Shown here in pieces: positions 9 through 34,186 of a stretch of DNA of 64,000 nucleotides. Within the stretch, counting starts at the first letter, position 1, and each line of letters opens with the position of its first letter. Origin of the DNA: a virus; IMG/VR virus record IMGVR_UViG_3300023174_000056, positions 1-64,000 of that record; one strand, 5' to 3'. The position numbers and the translations under genes were made by a program. The notes beneath the pieces are model-generated. The model saw only the letters and a list, made by a program, of their open reading frames with translations. It searched no databases and was not told where the DNA came from.

Positions 9-338
9 CTAATCACCCTTTGGACTAAACTGAATTACGTTATCCTTATTTTCTGATTTCTTCTTTTTGTCTTTTTGCTTTGGATTAGGCGAAGGATTCA
101 GATAAATAAACCTAGCAACAAACTTCTTGTTTGGAACAGTAATAGTTGTTTTACATTCTTTACAATTAATCTGTAGACCTGTTCCACCATCAAGAATTGC
201 AATACCCCATTGCATATTTGCTTCTTCGTAATCACCATCACAGCAATTACAAACAGGCTCAGTTAGCCTAATGTCAATTCTGTCAAACATTTGTTTGCGC
301 CTTATCCATTTCTTTAGTTTGTTGAGCATGAATACCAT
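9..338 (-). CDS. Hypothetical protein with two CxxC pairs (Zn-ribbon-like)
   Basis: CNCC and CKEC motifs; true start may be a downstream Met. Confidence 0.6.
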   Translation of the reverse strand: MVFMLNKLKKWIRRKQMFDRIDIRLTEPVCNCCDGDYEEANMQWGIAILDGGTGLQINCKECKTTITVPNKKFVARFIYLNPSPNPKQKDKKKKSENKDNVIQFSPKGD

Positions 339-428
339 TGGAGGAAAGAGAAGGATTTGAACCTTCGGAACCCGTTAAGGTTCATCAGTTTTCAAGACTG
401 ACTGTTTAAGCCGCTCACACACCTTTCC
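339..428 (-). tRNA. tRNA-Ser(UGA)
   Basis: Anticodon arm TCAGT-CTTGAAA-ACTGA, long variable arm, TTCAAAT T-loop, encoded CCA. Confidence 0.95.
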
Positions 429-433
429 ATAAT

Positions 434-510
434 TGGCGATCCCGATAGGAGTCGAACCTATAACCTACGAGGTAGAAGCTCGTTGCTCTATCCAATTGAG
501 CTACGGGACC
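434..510 (-). tRNA. tRNA-Arg(UCU)
   Basis: ACGAG-CTTCTAC-CTCGT, TTCGACT T-loop, CCA. Confidence 0.95.
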
Positions 511-523
511 GTTATTTCAAAAT

Positions 524-597
524 TGGTTCGGGATGATGGATTTGAACCACCATAGGCAGATTCAAAGTCTGCCGTCCTGCCCTTAGACGAATCCCGA
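524..597 (-). tRNA. tRNA-Gln(UUG)
   Basis: GCAGA-CTTTGAA-TCTGC, U1-A72, CCA. Confidence 0.95.
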
Positions 598-615
598 ATA
601 AAAACTATTTATAGT

Positions 616-825
616 ATGACTTACACACAAGGACAACTAATAGTTATCCGCACTAGATTACTTCTGAGAGGTGCCATAGATGCTGGGGGCGAATCCGAAG
701 CAATCTATATGTTTTTATCTTCAGAAGACGGTATTGCAAAAGTATACAAACTTTCTACTGGCGACACAATACTTATTGATTTAAGTGATCCAAGAATCAT
801 ATCGCACCAACCTTACAATGGGTAA
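616..825 (+). CDS. Small hypothetical protein, the only credible plus-strand ORF
   Basis: Fills the gap between tRNA-Gln and a structured RNA; ACTATTTATA motif 2 nt before ATG. Confidence 0.55.
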   Translation: MTYTQGQLIVIRTRLLLRGAIDAGGESEAIYMFLSSEDGIAKVYKLSTGDTILIDLSDPRIISHQPYNG

Positions 826-833
826 AAAAACAT

Positions 834-969
834 TATGCGGGGTTGGTTTCTCGACCCAACGACTATCTGCGCTTCCATAATTTTGTCTCAAGGCAATTGG
901 TGTTCAATGCACCAAACCCGACTGGGTGTTCGCAGCAGAGTTGAACACCAATAATAATTAGCCCGCATA
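834..969 (-). ncRNA. Structured non-coding RNA of about 136 nt in the tRNA cluster
   Basis: Terminal stem TATGCGGG/CCCGCATA, 12-bp stem ATTGGTGTTCAA/TTGAACACCAAT, hairpin GTTGG-GTCGAGAAA-CCAAC beside the closing stem; strand inferred from context. Confidence 0.65.
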
Positions 970-982
970 GTCTTTAAATTGT

Positions 983-1056
983 TGGCAGGGAATGTAGGAA
1001 TCGAACCCACGACAGGAGTTTTGGAGACTCTTATGATACCATTTCACTAATTCCCT
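983..1056 (-). tRNA. tRNA-Trp(CCA)
   Basis: GAGT-CTCCAAA-ACTC, TTCGATT T-loop, CCA. Confidence 0.93.
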
Positions 1057-1061
1057 GTGAA

Positions 1062-1146
1062 TGATGTTGAACCCTCGTATGGGACTTGAACCCATATGAA
1101 CGATCCCTCGTTATCTTGCCGTTAGACGAACGAGGATTCAGCATCA
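1062..1146 (-). ncRNA. tRNA-like RNA 1 (no anticodon, GNRA-capped, extended acceptor stem, no CCA)
   Basis: 17-bp terminal helix with one C-A mismatch; D arm GTCT-AACGGCA-AGAT; AACGA-GGGA-TCGTT; T arm ATGGG-TTCAAGT-CCCAT. Confidence 0.8.
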
Positions 1147-1152
1147 AATTGC

Positions 1153-1228
1153 TGGTGCCGCCCCTTGGGATCGAACCAAGTTTGTCGGTTCTTCAGACCG
1201 ATGCAATGACCACATCTGCTAAAGCGGC
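1153..1228 (-). tRNA. tRNA-Phe(GAA)
   Basis: TCGGT-CTGAAGA-ACCGA, TTCGATC T-loop, CCA. Confidence 0.93.
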
Positions 1229-1237
1229 ATTACGAAT

Positions 1238-1312
1238 TGGTGACCCTAAGCGGATTTGAACCGCTGTAACAGCCTTGAAAGGGCTGTGTCCTAACCGTTA
1301 GACGATAGGGCC
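1238..1312 (-). tRNA. tRNA-Glu(UUC)
   Basis: CAGCC-CTTTCAA-GGCTG, CCA. Confidence 0.95.
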
Positions 1313-1316
1313 AAAT

Positions 1317-1392
1317 TGGTGAGGAAGGTGGGACTCGAACCCACAACTAACGGCTTAAAAGGCCGCTACTCTAACCATTGAGTTACTTCCCC
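1317..1392 (-). tRNA. tRNA-Lys(UUU)
   Basis: GCGGC-CTTTTAA-GCCGT, TTCGAGT T-loop, CCA. Confidence 0.95.
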
Positions 1393-1403
1393 GAAAAGTA
1401 CTG

Positions 1404-1488
1404 TAACTAAAGAGAACAGGAGTCGAACCTATTATTACAAGGGTGCCCCCTTGCTGTGATTATGTATCCGTTTCACTCTCTCTTGTTA
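1404..1488 (-). ncRNA. tRNA-like RNA 2 (no anticodon, GNRA-capped, extended acceptor stem, no CCA)
   Basis: TAAC-AAGAGA pairs with TCTCTT-TA-GTTA; D-like arm GTG-AAACGGATA-CAT; GCAAGGG-GGCA-CCCTTGT; T arm ATAGG-TTCGACT-CCTGT. Confidence 0.72.
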
Positions 1489-1495
1489 AGAAAAT

Positions 1496-1779
1496 TGGCT
1501 GGCGAAGTAGGATTCGAACCTACGACCCGATGGTTACATACCACTATAGTTTTCACTACCCATTTCTGGTTTGTGGTCTGGACTATTCCATCATCCGCTT
1601 GGGATGGACTGATTATAGTCTCTGCACGTTCCTGATTTCTCAGGCTTCGCTCAAGATTGCCACGCTTAATACTTTAAGCAGAGGGTTCCTTGAATTTACA
1701 GTCTTTTCATTTTGATGTTACCATCAAACGCTGCTATTTTGTTTACAGCCATCTGCTCTGCCTACTGAGCTATTCGCCA
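1496..1779 (-). tRNA. tRNA-Asn(GUU) interrupted by a group I intron (exons 1745-1779 and 1496-1536)
   Basis: 35-nt 5' exon ends GATGG-CT-GT and the 3' exon starts T-AA-CCATC, giving the loop CT-GTT-AA; G73 plus CCA. Confidence 0.93.
1537..1744 (-). mobile_element. Group I intron, 208 nt, no ORF, at tRNA position 35/36
   Basis: P1 GCUGU/GCAGC with U-G at the splice site, P2 with GUAA loop, P3 GACTG/CAGTC, P AAATTCAAGGAA, Q AATCTTGAGC, R TGCAGAGACTA, S GGAATAGTCC, terminal G. Confidence 0.92.
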
Positions 1780-2327
1780 ACTAAACCTAATACTTTTGCT
1801 CTCTTTCTTATTGCATTATCCGATACGCCCAGCATTTTTCCTATTGCTACCATGCTATGCGAATCTAATAAACTCTTTAGATCAACACTATCCCAATTAA
1901 CTTTTCTGTTCTTTATATGAGCGCACTTTTCCGAACAAGTTACATTATTTCTATTTTTTTTCTTGCCACAAACAGGGCACTCATTCATTTTATCCAATCT
2001 TTCAGTTTCTCTATAATTTTCAAAGATTGGATTGAAGGTTGGCAAATTATTTGGTATTTCAACCAAACCTTCATGGTATTCTCTATGGCACCGACAGCAT
2101 AGGATAACACATTTTTTGACTTCAGAAACGAGTCTTGACCAGCTTTTTATATTACCTCTTGCTGCTCCTAATGCAAACTCTTTAGTAGATGGATCAATGT
2201 GATGAAAATCTAAAGCGCCTTCACATTTAGAATAATTACATATTACACATTTTCCGCCCATAGCTTCCAACAATCTCAACTTTGTTTTAAGTCTCCATTG
2301 TTTTACCTTATCCGAACTTTGACTCAT
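1770..2327 (-). CDS. Free-standing HNH endonuclease with Zn ribbon and C-terminal HTH
   Basis: CVICNY...LDFHHIDP...LCCRCHREYH; CPVC...CSEKC; SMVAIGKMLGVSDNAIRKR; stop codon lies inside tRNA-Asn. Confidence 0.9.
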   Translation of the reverse strand: MSQSSDKVKQWRLKTKLRLLEAMGGKCVICNYSKCEGALDFHHIDPSTKEFALGAARGNIKSWSRLVSEVKKCVILCCRCHREYHEGLVEIPNNLPTFNPIFENYRETERLDKMNECPVCGKKKNRNNVTCSEKCAHIKNRKVNWDSVDLKSLLDSHSMVAIGKMLGVSDNAIRKRAKVLGLVGE

Positions 2328-2454
2328 ATTTATTATCTCCTACTATAATAAATAGTATCATGGTTCGAAAAAGATGTTAAAATAAACACCGATTGTTTCA
2401 GTTGGCACAATCGGTAAAGCACTTGTTATCTTAGGCACATACACCTAAGAACAT

Positions 2455-2541
2455 TGGTGGGGGAAGTCGGAATCGAACCGACAAGACCGTTAAGTCGGCA
2501 GATTTTAAGTCTGCTGTGTTTACCTATTTCACCATACCCCC
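2455..2541 (-). tRNA. tRNA-Leu(UAA)
   Basis: GCAGA-CTTAAAA-TCTGC, long variable arm, A73, CCA. Confidence 0.95.
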
Positions 2542-2548
2542 GAAAAGT

Positions 2549-2638
2549 TGGTCGGCCTGCTAGGAGTCGAACCTAGTCTAGGCGGTCATCTACCGCAAAG
2601 CGATTATAAGTCGCTCTCGCAATCCGATGCACAGGCCG
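2549..2638 (-). tRNA. Atypical tRNA, anticodon UAU (nominally Ile), with long variable arm
   Basis: AGCGA-CTTATAA-TCGCT; V-arm GCGGT-AGATG-ACCGC; T arm CTAGG-TTCGACT-CCTAG; acceptor CGGCCTG/CAGGCCG-A-CCA; short D arm. Confidence 0.85.
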
Positions 2639-2728
2639 ATATAACTAACAATAACACGGTATTATTCAATTGTTAAAGAACTTTTTTGTTTCGCTGTCGT
2701 GGCTTTCGTCCAACCACCGACAAGAACC

Positions 2729-2933
2729 AGTCTATCACAGAGCGTCGAGCGTGTCAAGCACTCTTTTTTTTCTTTCGTTCTGCGCTGCGTTCTCTTTCAT
2801 CGCAGCGACAAGAACCATTCTAGCAGAGCGTCGAGGACTTGTCAAGCACCCTCTCGCTCTTTTTTTCGTCGGTGCGCCTTGCTTTCATCGCCACCGTGAA
2901 GAACAGTCTATCATGCGCCGCTCACGTTGTCAA
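2729..2933 (-). promoter_or_regulatory. Three tandem sigma70 promoters (88-bp period) driving the tRNA cluster
   Basis: TTGACA-N17-TAGACT (2729-2757), TTGACA-N17-TAGAAT (2817-2845), TTGACA-N17-TAGACT (2905-2933), all with extended -10 TGn and upstream A-tracts. Confidence 0.9.
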
Positions 2934-3182: not shown

Positions 3183-3444
3183 TTTGCCTTCTTTTGCCTT
3201 GCAAGGTGATTCTGGTTAGAACCAGAATTTATATTTAGGGGTTGTCTCTCAACCAATTCTACCAGATCACCTTAGTTTTAGCGCCAATTATGACGTAAAC
3301 TTCTAATCTGTGTAGGTTGAGAGAAAAGGGGCAAGCAATAACTCTCAAGCGATGTTGCATCGCTTGGAAACTTTTTAAGTTTTGTAGTTAGGTTGTCCAT
3401 AATATAACCCTAAATAGTATCCAGTTTTAGAATCTACCTTTTTA

Positions 3445-3801
3445 TTACCAACTTGAATGGTAAACTAGTTTTGATCCTGCTTTTACATCTTCCAGCAATT
3501 CCTCAAACTTCTTTATTGATTCTGTTACGTCTTGCATGAAATACTGATCATAGTCCGTTGAACCAAAGAAGAATCCATCACTTGTTGGTAGTAATACCTT
3601 TGCAGTTAATGGGGCTTGCTTAATAGCCTTCATAATGTAAATAAGGTTTTCAAGATCCTCAGTTGTCAAAGCTCTGGATGGTTCGCAATTATCAATACCA
3701 TTTTGGCAGTTCTTCACAAACCAAGCATGAAGTGCATTGAACTTTCGCCAGTATGCAACCTCATTACCATATTCATCATTGATATACATATCAAGACCCA
3801 T
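3445..3801 (-). CDS. Conserved phage hypothetical protein (MGLD...YWRKxNxxHxWF type)
   Basis: MGLDMY and YWRKFNALHAWF motifs, C-terminal YxSSW; GGAG RBS. Confidence 0.8.
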   Translation of the reverse strand: MGLDMYINDEYGNEVAYWRKFNALHAWFVKNCQNGIDNCEPSRALTTEDLENLIYIMKAIKQAPLTAKVLLPTSDGFFFGSTDYDQYFMQDVTESIKKFEELLEDVKAGSKLVYHSSW

Positions 3802-3813
3802 TACACAATCTCC

Positions 3814-4056
3814 TTATTCGATAACAACTTTTGCCTTAACCTTCTCAAACCTATCTTCAACCTTAAAACGACTCAAACAACCATTTTCTAGGTTAACGCA
3901 AAGCACAGTATCGCAATCCTGGTTAAAGTCATCTCCGTAATTTAAGCCATCGTCAGTAATAACATAATACGTACCAGCATTTTTGAATACGGTTCCAAAG
4001 TCCATTTCGCCAATTTCTTCCATGTTCTTACACTTCCGCTTATCTTCAATCTTCAT
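3814..4056 (-). CDS. Hypothetical protein
   Basis: Tightly packed minus-strand ORF. Confidence 0.6.
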   Translation of the reverse strand: MKIEDKRKCKNMEEIGEMDFGTVFKNAGTYYVITDDGLNYGDDFNQDCDTVLCVNLENGCLSRFKVEDRFEKVKAKVVIE

Positions 4057-4330
4057 TTGGTTTATCCTTTAATTTAAGAGGTTCAGATGAACCGATTTCT
4101 GGACGTTCATACTTTTCCATCTTGCCTAAGAACTTACCTTCGTAATAAGAGTCTAACCATTTGCCACATTCTTTACAATGGTAAATAAGCCAAATACTTT
4201 GTGACCAAGAATATTTATCGTTCTTTTCCCAGATAGGCTGATGCATTTTGCCTTCTTTACCTTTGCACCATTTCCTAGTATTCTTCTTTGACCTGTGTTT
4301 AGGGATTTCATCATCTTTGTCTATACTCAT
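4046..4330 (-). CDS. Hypothetical protein, Zn-binding motif
   Basis: WCKGK...H...CKECG. Confidence 0.65.
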   Translation of the reverse strand: MSIDKDDEIPKHRSKKNTRKWCKGKEGKMHQPIWEKNDKYSWSQSIWLIYHCKECGKWLDSYYEGKFLGKMEKYERPEIGSSEPLKLKDKPNED

Positions 4331-5859: not shown

Positions 5860-6723
5860 TTACTCACTAAGAATTTTAAGATCACGCTCCATCATTATAG
5901 TCTCTTGGCTATTTGCAATCCACATGATTTTAAGCCTTCTTGAGCCATAGCCATAAGAATGATTCTCGTCAAACTTAGAAATCATGCCAAGACGAGGAGC
6001 ATCCTTATTTTCCATATCCCAATAAAATGGATCTTTATTTCTATTATTCTTCAATTTATCACGCAATTGGACAAGAGTTCCAATTTTTAAAGTACGAGGT
6101 CTTGCGTTTTCTAGTTTATTACGGAAGCTAGAATCATTTGTAGCAATTGCAAACTCTACAATGGTAGGAACATCCGTTGTGTTATTGTGGTCATTCCACA
6201 CTTCACGCAAGCCGGGGCGCTTTGAAAACCATTCTTGAAATGCAATCTCATACTTTTGAAATTCATTCGTCTGTGTTGCCAAATAGGCAAGGATCGAATC
6301 AAACTTTTCAAGAGTTTGGTATGAAACGCCAGTTCCATAAGCTGCACGGAGCGTACTATAATTTGCAGACGCTGCCTTAAACTCGGTATACCAAACCTCT
6401 CTGCCCTTTTCAAGATAAGGCATAAATTGCTTTACCTCATCGTCCGTAAAAGAAAGTTCGGCTTTTGTTGCCGTACTCTTGAAGTCAAAATTTGCAGGAA
6501 CAAGATCCTTCAATTTATTTCTTGAAGCGTAATCGGCAACAATATTTGCTGCCATAGCGACATCATAACTATTTCCACGCCAATACCATCGACGGCGAAA
6601 ATCCTTAAAAGTTAAGGTCTTGCCTTCATTGGTCTTATACTTGAAATCAAGCTTGTAATGGATATTCTTATTAGACATTATCAACAGCCCTCGTTTGGAA
6701 GATAGGAAGATCCATTTGCTCAT
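5860..6723 (-). CDS. Hypothetical protein with C-terminal SH3/KOW-like domain
   Basis: LKIGTLVQLR...GSRRLKIMW...MERDLKIL; likely start MSNKN. Confidence 0.75.
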   Translation of the reverse strand: MSKWIFLSSKRGLLIMSNKNIHYKLDFKYKTNEGKTLTFKDFRRRWYWRGNSYDVAMAANIVADYASRNKLKDLVPANFDFKSTATKAELSFTDDEVKQFMPYLEKGREVWYTEFKAASANYSTLRAAYGTGVSYQTLEKFDSILAYLATQTNEFQKYEIAFQEWFSKRPGLREVWNDHNNTTDVPTIVEFAIATNDSSFRNKLENARPRTLKIGTLVQLRDKLKNNRNKDPFYWDMENKDAPRLGMISKFDENHSYGYGSRRLKIMWIANSQETIMMERDLKILSE

Positions 6724-6955
6724 TTTCGGAGCGATATTGTGAATGACGAATAAAGAGAATATTTAGACAATTCTTCTCTAGAACCTTGCTATTAAAGTCT
6801 AAAGAAAAATCTTCCCAATTCCAATTCTCGTTATCCTTGAGTTCTGGATGCTTTGAATAGACATACTCCATCAAAATGTTTTGAACTTCCTCACCAGTAA
6901 GATCAATATTAACAACTTCGCTCTTAGTAGAATTCATGTTTGAAACTCTCTCCAT
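6671..6955 (-). CDS. Hypothetical protein
   Basis: Packed ORF. Confidence 0.55.
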   Translation of the reverse strand: MERVSNMNSTKSEVVNIDLTGEEVQNILMEYVYSKHPELKDNENWNWEDFSLDFNSKVLEKNCLNILFIRHSQYRSENEQMDLPIFQTRAVDNV

Positions 6956-33624: not shown

Positions 33625-33885
33625 TCATAAATAGTTTCCAATATCTATTTGATCCTTAATTTTTTCTAATACTTCTTCTTCTATTTGTTTTACTCGCACA
33701 AAACTACAGCCAATTCTTTTAGAAACATCTCGTAACGTCATGTTACCATTCTTTTCTACTGCTATATGAACGCAATTAAGGTCTTCCTCAAAATCAATCC
33801 AGCTTCTGCATTCTTTATTTGGACAAGATTCTTCTAATGTTTTGCAGGCTTCTGTACATGTTTTAAACTTATAATCACTCATCAT
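33625..33885 (-). CDS. Cys-rich domain plus sigma70 region-4-like HTH
   Basis: MTLRDVSKRIGCSFVRVKQIE...LEKI. Confidence 0.8.
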   Translation of the reverse strand: MMSDYKFKTCTEACKTLEESCPNKECRSWIDFEEDLNCVHIAVEKNGNMTLRDVSKRIGCSFVRVKQIEEEVLEKIKDQIDIGNYL

Positions 33886-34186
33886 TATCTTCCAATTCTA
33901 TTTGGTCGTAAATATCAGCTACTTCCTCTTCGGATAGCATAAAATATTCTTCTTGCTTTTGCTGTTCTTTTTCGTCTTTTTTCATTTTTTTTAATGATCT
34001 TTTACCTATTCTTTCTTCATTCAGTTCTTTTATTAAAGAACGCATATGAGGATTATCTTCAACATATGCCTTTACAAGCATTTTAAAAAAAGTTTGTTGT
34101 GGTAAATTATCATAACGAAATTTTAATCTCATATCTGCATGAGCTGTATTGCTTAAATAAAAGGTATACTTCTTCCAACCTTCCAT
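33875..34186 (-). CDS. Hypothetical protein
   Basis: Packed ORF. Confidence 0.65.
   Translation of the reverse strand: MEGWKKYTFYLSNTAHADMRLKFRYDNLPQQTFFKMLVKAYVEDNPHMRSLIKELNEERIGKRSLKKMKKDEKEQQKQEEYFMLSEEEVADIYDQIELEDNDE

Follow-up and report, generated by a model that had tools for sequence, protein, structure and literature searches.

The stretch of DNA analyzed here (64,000 nt, hereafter the window) is the first 64 kb of a 168-kb IMG/VR record, ~ 92% complete, from an uncultured phage of 170–180 kb that encodes a DnaE-type polymerase, GroEL, ribonucleotide reductase, and a DnaB helicase. No cultured phage was found with a DnaE more than 30% identical to that of this phage, and a megablast search with window positions 300–2700 against cultured phages gave zero matches. 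A tRNA operon occupies positions 339–2638 on the minus strand, and nine tRNAs were called within the window by ARAGORN. The IMG/VR record ends within the tRNA array. The same phage was assembled a second time (L125; ENA, 181 kb), and this assembly adds at least 10 tRNAs beyond the window start (L125 6000–8558), and the whole array, taken across the window and L125, contains at least 19 ARAGORN-called tRNAs besides tRNA-Asn.

The element under study, termed mimic 2, lies between tRNA-Asn and tRNA-Lys. It starts 7 nt past the CCA of tRNA-Asn (CCA end at 1496) and stops 11 nt before tRNA-Lys (start 1392). The group I intron inside tRNA-Asn was located at 1556–1754 (Rfam RF00028, 62.5 bits). No terminator-like sites were found between the upstream promoters (2729–2933) and mimic 2. 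The features of the locus are as follows.

2729–2933, minus strand: three strong tandem sigma-70-type promoters upstream of the tRNA operon, which they are predicted to drive
1496–1779, minus strand: tRNA-Asn(GUU), upstream neighbor of mimic 2, with a group I intron inside (Rfam RF00028 and sequence)
1404–1488, minus strand: mimic 2, the entire tRNA-shaped element, 85 nt including an outer 4-bp helix (minimum free energy (MFE) cloverleaf; Rfam tRNA alignment; identical copies in L125 and L126)
1479–1485, minus strand: acceptor 5′ strand, partner 1409–1415, with a C × U mismatch at pair 1:72 (Rfam alignment)
1456–1476, minus strand: D arm, 4-bp stem (1473–1476/1456–1459) and 13-nt loop with GG (MFE fold and Rfam alignment)
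1437–1454, minus strand: sealed arm in the anticodon place, 7-bp stem (1448–1454/1437–1443) and GGCA (GNRA) tetraloop at 1444–1447 (MFE fold and Rfam alignment)
1416–1432, minus strand: canonical T arm, 5-bp stem and 7-nt loop of T-loop consensus (motif check and Rfam alignment)
1404–1415, minus strand: acceptor 3′ strand (1409–1415), discriminator A (1408), and trailer (1404–1407), with no CCA (sequence, fold)
1317–1392, minus strand: tRNA-Lys(UUU), downstream neighbor of mimic 2 (ARAGORN, Rfam)
1067–1141, minus strand: mimic 1, with an 11–12-bp acceptor helix and a 5-bp stem plus GNRA loop in the anticodon place (fold and covariance model)

Some further features of the operon were recorded. 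An HNH gene ends within the 5′ exon of the intron-split tRNA-Asn(GUU), and the same arrangement of intron-containing tRNA-Asn and HNH gene was seen in a more distant phage (HNH 62% identical; L127 ~ 6560–6840, L128 ~ 1610–1890). The tRNA-Asn genes of G001, G004, G009, and L129 have no intron. Another structured RNA of ~ 140 nt, with a long closing stem and a T-arm-like hairpin, was noted in the operon at window ~ 834–969 on the minus strand; judged by eye, it is conserved in the related phage G001 (L045 3545–3704, plus strand). Two plus-strand ORFs (1443–1715 and 1456–1635) are antisense to tRNAs and were taken as spurious.

Structure of mimic 2

The MFE structure of mimic 2 is a cloverleaf of −25.3 kcal·mol−1, compared with −15.5 ± 2.8 kcal·mol−1 for 200 dinucleotide shuffles (z = −3.5), none of which (0/200) folded as well. 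When the Rfam tRNA model (RF00005) was applied to this stretch alone, all 71 positions were aligned, with a score of 16.3 bits against a threshold of 29. In the frame of that model the element reads 7/2/4/loop/4/1/stem/loop/stem/4/5/7/5/7/1, as in canonical tRNA. ARAGORN, run in tRNA and tmRNA modes, made no call at mimic 2, window-wide Rfam scans gave no match at 1404–1488, and Rfam families other than tRNA produced no meaningful match to the stretch itself.

A reading of the locus made earlier, from the sequence only, had described a T arm, a D loop retaining the GG, a 7-bp stem capped by GGCA, an acceptor helix, and the lack of a CCA end, and every one of these is present, on the minus strand. 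The D arm itself, including the GG, was also found where it had been placed, but the 3-bp stem proposed for it gives way to a 4-bp stem on which the MFE fold and the Rfam tRNA model agree. The D loop, at 13 nt, likely carries a 4-nt insertion. The two linker bases between acceptor and D stem are G and A, so that position 8 is G and not U, and the variable region is 4 nt long. An AG repeat in the acceptor permits a second register (1477–1483), and it is this other register that the MFE fold takes.

The sealed arm is 18 nt in length, while the corresponding arm of a tRNA is 17 nt. The Rfam model reads it as an anticodon stem of 5 bp and, in the loop position, 8 nt that form two more pairs enclosing GGCA; the chance that an 8-nt loop would pair with itself twice around a GNRA sequence was put at ~ 0.004 by our own arithmetic. 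Two accounts of such an arm were rejected: a frameshift-suppressor tRNA with an 8-nt loop, as there is no U33 and the loop pairs with itself, and the scar of an intron, as the arm is only 1 nt longer than that of a tRNA.

Outside the acceptor, the trailer (1404–1407) pairs with the leader (1485–1488) to give an outer helix of 4 bp. Beyond pair 1:72, mimic 2 pairs at four of five positions, a level reached by 22 of 570 real phage tRNAs, and mimic 1 pairs at nine of 10. For mimic 2, this extension of the helix is suggestive, not decisive, as a distinguishing feature. A CCA end is encoded by all 19 of the real tRNAs of the array and by 24 of 24 in two relatives, and by neither mimic.

Mimic 2 has the T arm with T-loop consensus and the GG in the D loop that are expected of a canonical tRNA; it has no 7-nt anticodon loop, no U33, no anticodon, and no free 3′ N73-CCA. 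Because it lacks that loop, U33, an anticodon, and, unlike the real tRNAs of the array, a CCA end, mimic 2 is not a working tRNA. The end-to-end alignment with the Rfam tRNA model shows it to be tRNA-derived. With the T arm, the D-loop GG, and the coaxial stack of acceptor and T arm all kept, the RNA should form the tRNA L-shape and its elbow. With two added G-C pairs and a GNRA tetraloop in place of the anticodon loop, there is no means of reading codons and nothing for an anticodon nuclease to cut.

Distribution at the Asn|Lys junction

Using DnaE as bait, 13 related records (55–90% identity) were collected. The sequence-only reading had proposed a survey of homologues, and here none of the 13 carries mimic 2, including the nearest relatives, whose DnaE proteins are 90%, 80%, and 75% identical. 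In G001, G004, and G009 the gap between tRNA-Asn and tRNA-Lys(UUU) is 6–17 nt, so that neither mimic 2 nor an ordinary tRNA lies there. The junction is filled differently elsewhere: a free-standing HNH endonuclease ORF is found in G005 (L048 3815–4215), and an unrelated GC-rich hairpin of 75 nt is found in L129, an NCBI metagenome-assembled contig (5882–5956). In L127 and L128, where the intron-containing tRNA-Asn is likewise present with an HNH gene upstream, tRNA-Asn is followed by an ORF and there is no mimic 2.

Used as bait, the HNH neighbor recovered the only other copies of mimic 2, L125 and L126, which are identical and come from two other datasets; in the more distant arrays that it retrieved, mimic 2 was absent. 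The 287-aa neighboring protein had no relatives as bait, the 109-aa neighbor led to contigs without the tRNA array, distant blastn searches returned ordinary tRNA matches and none across mimic 2, and the exact 18-mer of the sealed arm was not found in IMG/VR. Since only identical copies are available, and the 6 kb around mimic 2 in L125 is also 100% identical, purifying selection on mimic 2 cannot be shown.

Candidates for a parent tRNA were also sought. The D and T arms of mimic 2 closely resemble those of CAU-anticodon tRNA genes in four unrelated viral contigs (L144, L145, L152, and L160), and the D-arm motif also occurs in tRNA-Trp. No convincing parent was found in the phage's own genome, where the best match was to the D arm of tRNA-Trp only and the resident tRNA-Met is unrelated. 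An IMG/VR pattern scan with the T arm and D-loop motif of mimic 2 recovered real tRNAs, genes of CAU type with related D and T arms, and a small number of sealed analogues.

As tRNA-Asn and tRNA-Lys are adjacent in relatives and the content of the junction varies, mimic 2 looks like a recent gain there, and the junction (window 1393–1495) is an insertion hotspot. The main rival to a selected role draws on the same observations. It could be that a tRNA was gained or duplicated at the Asn|Lys junction and then lost its anticodon loop and CCA, leaving a young pseudogene that is transcribed, functionless, and yet to be deleted. The restriction of mimic 2 to one phage species, with none in the three nearest relatives, fits this account, as do the HNH ORF and the hairpin found at the same junction in G005 and L129, the departures from the tRNA norm in base 8, pair 1:72, and the length of the D loop, and the slippage-prone AG repeat of the acceptor; the record of phage T5 also annotates a pseudo-tRNA within its array. 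Every stem of mimic 2 is intact, however, little junk is tolerated in phage genomes, and neutral decay is unlikely to add two G-C pairs and a GNRA tetraloop, given the small chance estimated above. Recent pseudogene formation is considered a serious possibility, if one held by a minority of our expectation.

The position of the element bears on a different proposal, in which the tRNA-like fold would act solely as a processing or stability module: by bringing in RNase P or RNase Z, or by halting exonucleases, it would shape the maturation of the intron-containing tRNA-Asn or of the operon transcript. Mimic 2 does lie 7 nt past that tRNA, and tRNA-like structures are known processing signals, as in mascRNA and T4 tRNA precursors. 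The flanking real tRNAs, however, already provide processing sites, the relatives mature their tRNA-Asn and tRNA-Lys without mimic 2, and L127 and L128, with the same intron-containing tRNA-Asn and HNH gene, have no such element. A role of this kind is considered improbable.

Mimic 1 and the recurrence of the design

Mimic 1 occupies window 1067–1141 in the same operon. Among 14 related records, orthologues were found only in G001 (L045 5650–5724, plus strand) and G005 (L048 3579–3654, minus strand), and mimic 1 is absent from the complete relative G009. The family has a 12-bp acceptor helix, a Gln/Glu-type D loop, a GNRA-capped stem of 4–5 bp, and an invariant T arm. In an alignment of the three sequences, fitted to a covariance model, 97% of cells are paired, with both sides changed in 12 of the 22 pairs; none of 500 shuffles matched this, and slid controls collapsed. 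Compensation affects nine of the 12 pairs of the long acceptor helix and three of five in the sealed arm. Although the alignment has only three rows, the signal is clear, and mimic 1 is under structural selection.

The two elements were compared directly, and the sequence-only claim that they share one design without sharing a sequence was upheld on both counts. Each has a GNRA-capped, sealed anticodon arm, an intact T arm together with the GG, pairing of leader with trailer, and no CCA. The covariance model of the mimic 1 orthologues (R1) matched mimic 2 only locally (1416–1452, 8.7 bits), and the model of mimic 2 (R2) scored mimic 1 at 19 bits, which is below several real tRNAs. The body of mimic 1 is of Gln/Glu type, as judged from its D arm, and the next-best matches of R1 were tRNA-Gln and tRNA-Glu. 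As the two mimics are not sequence homologues and derive from different tRNA types, the design arose from two different tRNA bodies.

Further examples were sought with descriptor scans of ~ 1.85 Mb of fetched phage DNA, which held ~ 600 distinct tRNA calls; the loci had been picked by T-arm patterns, so the frequency of hits is biased. An IMG/VR pattern scan with the T arm of mimic 1 returned almost only real tRNAs. The descriptor scans identified four sealed-arm tRNA-like genes, none of them a normal tRNA, each in an unrelated viral contig.

L162 8226–8299, minus strand: 7-position stem and 4-nt loop, as in mimic 2; adjoins tRNA-Phe
L168 5263–5342, plus strand: followed by its own terminator
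L191 1328–1395, minus strand: 6-bp stem and CUUG loop
L093 5196–5263, plus strand: UCGG loop

The proposal that the two mimics represent a selected class is supported in part: mimic 1 is under structural selection and further sealed genes exist in unrelated contigs, but mimic 2 itself has no orthologue. The same results weigh against a young pseudogene, as the design seen in mimic 2 is kept by selection in mimic 1 and recurs in other contigs.

Comparison with known RNAs and possible roles

The kind of RNA to which mimic 2 belongs is not new. In the T5 record (NC_005859), the tRNA region includes RNA1 and RNA2, annotated as ‘tRNA-like stable RNA with unknown functions’, and RNA3, annotated as ‘putative tRNA-like RNA’. 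Like mimic 2, these three are found in a cluster of phage tRNA genes, with an acceptor and T arm resembling those of tRNA and with no decodable anticodon loop. RNA3 (73 nt; L222 5878–5950, minus strand; record 33877–33949) also follows directly after tRNA-Asn, and where the anticodon arm would be it forms a 6-bp stem closed by a 6-nt loop; unlike mimic 2, it has an ACCA end and an aberrant T loop of 8 nt, and it is without a GNRA cap. RNA1 and RNA2 differ in having large insertions rather than a short sealed hairpin. An unfiltered search of the T5 tRNA region with R2 gave no full-length match on RNA1, RNA2, or RNA3, and only a local T-arm match in RNA2 (12.6 bits).

The RNAC and RNAD of phage T4, also called species 1 and 2 RNAs, differ from mimic 2 in being longer (~ 120–140 nt) and not simple cloverleaves. 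Like the T5 RNAs, they come from the phage tRNA region as small and stable species, and their roles are unexplained (PMC3014915); T4 late RNAs have been confirmed by Northern blot (PMC9697503). The literature also mentions tRNA-like structures in phages generally (PMC10690425) and irregular tRNA polycistrons (PMC5389517). No description of a sealed, GNRA-capped design without CCA was found in the literature searched. Mimic 2 is of the kind of phage tRNA-like stable RNAs that are already known but unexplained, and its sealed, GNRA-capped, CCA-less form is a variant. To call it ‘undescribed’, as had been done from the sequence, is too strong in view of the T5 annotation and the T4 RNAs (PMC3014915).

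With canonical tRNA (RF00005) mimic 2 shares the frame, the T-loop consensus, the D-loop GG, and a position in the array. Non-decoding RNAs that keep the elbow and acceptor and are handled by tRNA enzymes include mascRNA, the tRNA-like modules of bacterial Y RNA (YrlA), and the domains of tmRNA. Mimic 2 is set apart from these by the lack of an Rfam match, and YrlA is topologically permuted relative to it. Y RNA, tmRNA, and viral TLS were accordingly rejected as its identity, there being no Rfam match, no Ro60 (TROVE) gene, and no tmRNA call by ARAGORN. Among potential partner proteins, no Ro60/TROVE, CCA-adding enzyme, PTH2, or Pth was found in the 168-kb record, which is ~ 92% complete.

One proposal would keep mimic 2 within tRNA biochemistry as an aminoacyl carrier outside translation, which would be trimmed, given a CCA, charged by an anticodon-blind synthetase, and used as donor by a phage transferase of ATE/Bpt type. 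An ORF with an ATE_C (arginyl/leucyl-tRNA protein transferase) domain is indeed present in the same phage (window 17598–18296, minus strand; 29.2 bits against a 25-bit cut-off), and the discriminator of mimic 2 is A. A weaker ATE_C match was found in G001, which has mimic 1; there was none in six other relatives, and none in G004, G008, and G009, which have no mimic. This co-occurrence is confounded by relatedness, however, and G005 has mimic 1 with no ATE match detected. Mimic 2 moreover encodes no CCA, unlike the real tRNAs of the array, and its trailer is paired with its leader. Such a carrier is very improbable.

The explanation preferred here is that mimic 2 is a selected, non-decoding look-alike of tRNA, possibly a decoy, for which the prospects are about evenly balanced. 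A tRNA-derived gene would have been remodeled into a tRNA-shaped small RNA that does not decode. This RNA would be transcribed with the tRNA operon from the three upstream promoters, and its excision could be a by-product of the processing of its neighbors, with tRNA-Asn being trimmed to its CCA and RNase P cutting at the 5′ end of tRNA-Lys; 3′ exonucleases would then be halted by the closed helix.

In favor of the look-alike are its derivation from a tRNA, the four helices, all intact, a fold far more stable than those of the shuffles, and the tRNA spacing within the array, together with the missing CCA, a degree of leader–trailer pairing that few real tRNAs reach, and the lack of a terminator between the promoters and mimic 2. 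The sealing of the arm would need several coordinated changes (~ 0.004 by chance) and recurs in mimic 1, which is selected, and in the unrelated viral contigs, and this too was counted for a selected look-alike, as was the fact that the T4 and T5 tRNA regions make stable non-tRNA RNAs (PMC3014915, PMC9697503). Against the look-alike are the lack of a mimic 2 orthologue, with tRNA-Asn and tRNA-Lys adjacent in G001, G004, and G009, the failure to find an obvious partner protein in the genome record, and the G at position 8, the 13-nt D loop, and the 1:72 mismatch, the last three being features that would equally arise by decay.

As to function, the look-alike may occupy a protein that recognizes tRNA by shape, being neither consumed by it nor entering translation; possible targets are a host tRNA-targeting defense enzyme or a tRNA-processing or tRNA-modifying enzyme. 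This function is offered tentatively and is rather doubtful, and the role of ‘tRNA-elbow mimic’ that the sequence-only reading had given it is pure conjecture. Cleavage of tRNA-Tyr by Septu, and amplification of the tRNA region as an anti-defense locus, have been described (PMC13096335). A decoy role would fit tRNA arrays as anti-defense loci (PMC13096335), and it would also fit the tRNA-repair-like genes, for an Rnl1-type RNA ligase and for a metallophosphatase, on a JGI contig that carries a 96% identical copy of the neighboring 109-aa gene.

In its broadest form, the proposal would be that mimics 1 and 2 are members of a class, widespread and unpublished, that has arisen many times over from different tRNAs. 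Its members would be decoys, neither cuttable nor decoding, and would titrate host immune nucleases that target tRNA or enzymes that handle tRNA. The proposal is unlikely as it stands. Phage tRNA arrays are now viewed as counter-measures to host tRNA-cutting nucleases, and, if the proposal were true, an uncuttable, non-decoding tRNA-shaped RNA would be a decoy, not a spare part, in the same arms race, adding an RNA-decoy layer to the anti-defense role of these arrays. For decades there has been no explanation for the stable RNAs, other than tRNAs, that come from the tRNA regions of T4 and T5, and a simple, recurrent, and convergent design, in which the anticodon arm is sealed, the elbow intact, and the end closed, provides a tractable model for working out what such RNAs do. 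The copy of mimic 2 studied here matters less than the family, to which it contributes an independent origin of the design and neither conservation evidence nor functional proof.

Other unusual tRNA-shaped genes were observed in the related arrays. In G007, a ‘minihelix’ gene lies between tRNA-Lys and tRNA-Arg (L049 ~ 3400–3445, minus strand); its parts are a 7-bp acceptor stem, a linker of 9 nt, a T arm of canonical form, and a discriminator with CCA, and D and anticodon arms are missing. In relatives, L045 (~ 3975–4065) and L046 (~ 3300–3385) contain tRNA-shaped, CCA-ended genes missed by ARAGORN, one of which resembles a tRNA-Tyr of class II whose T loop is odd.
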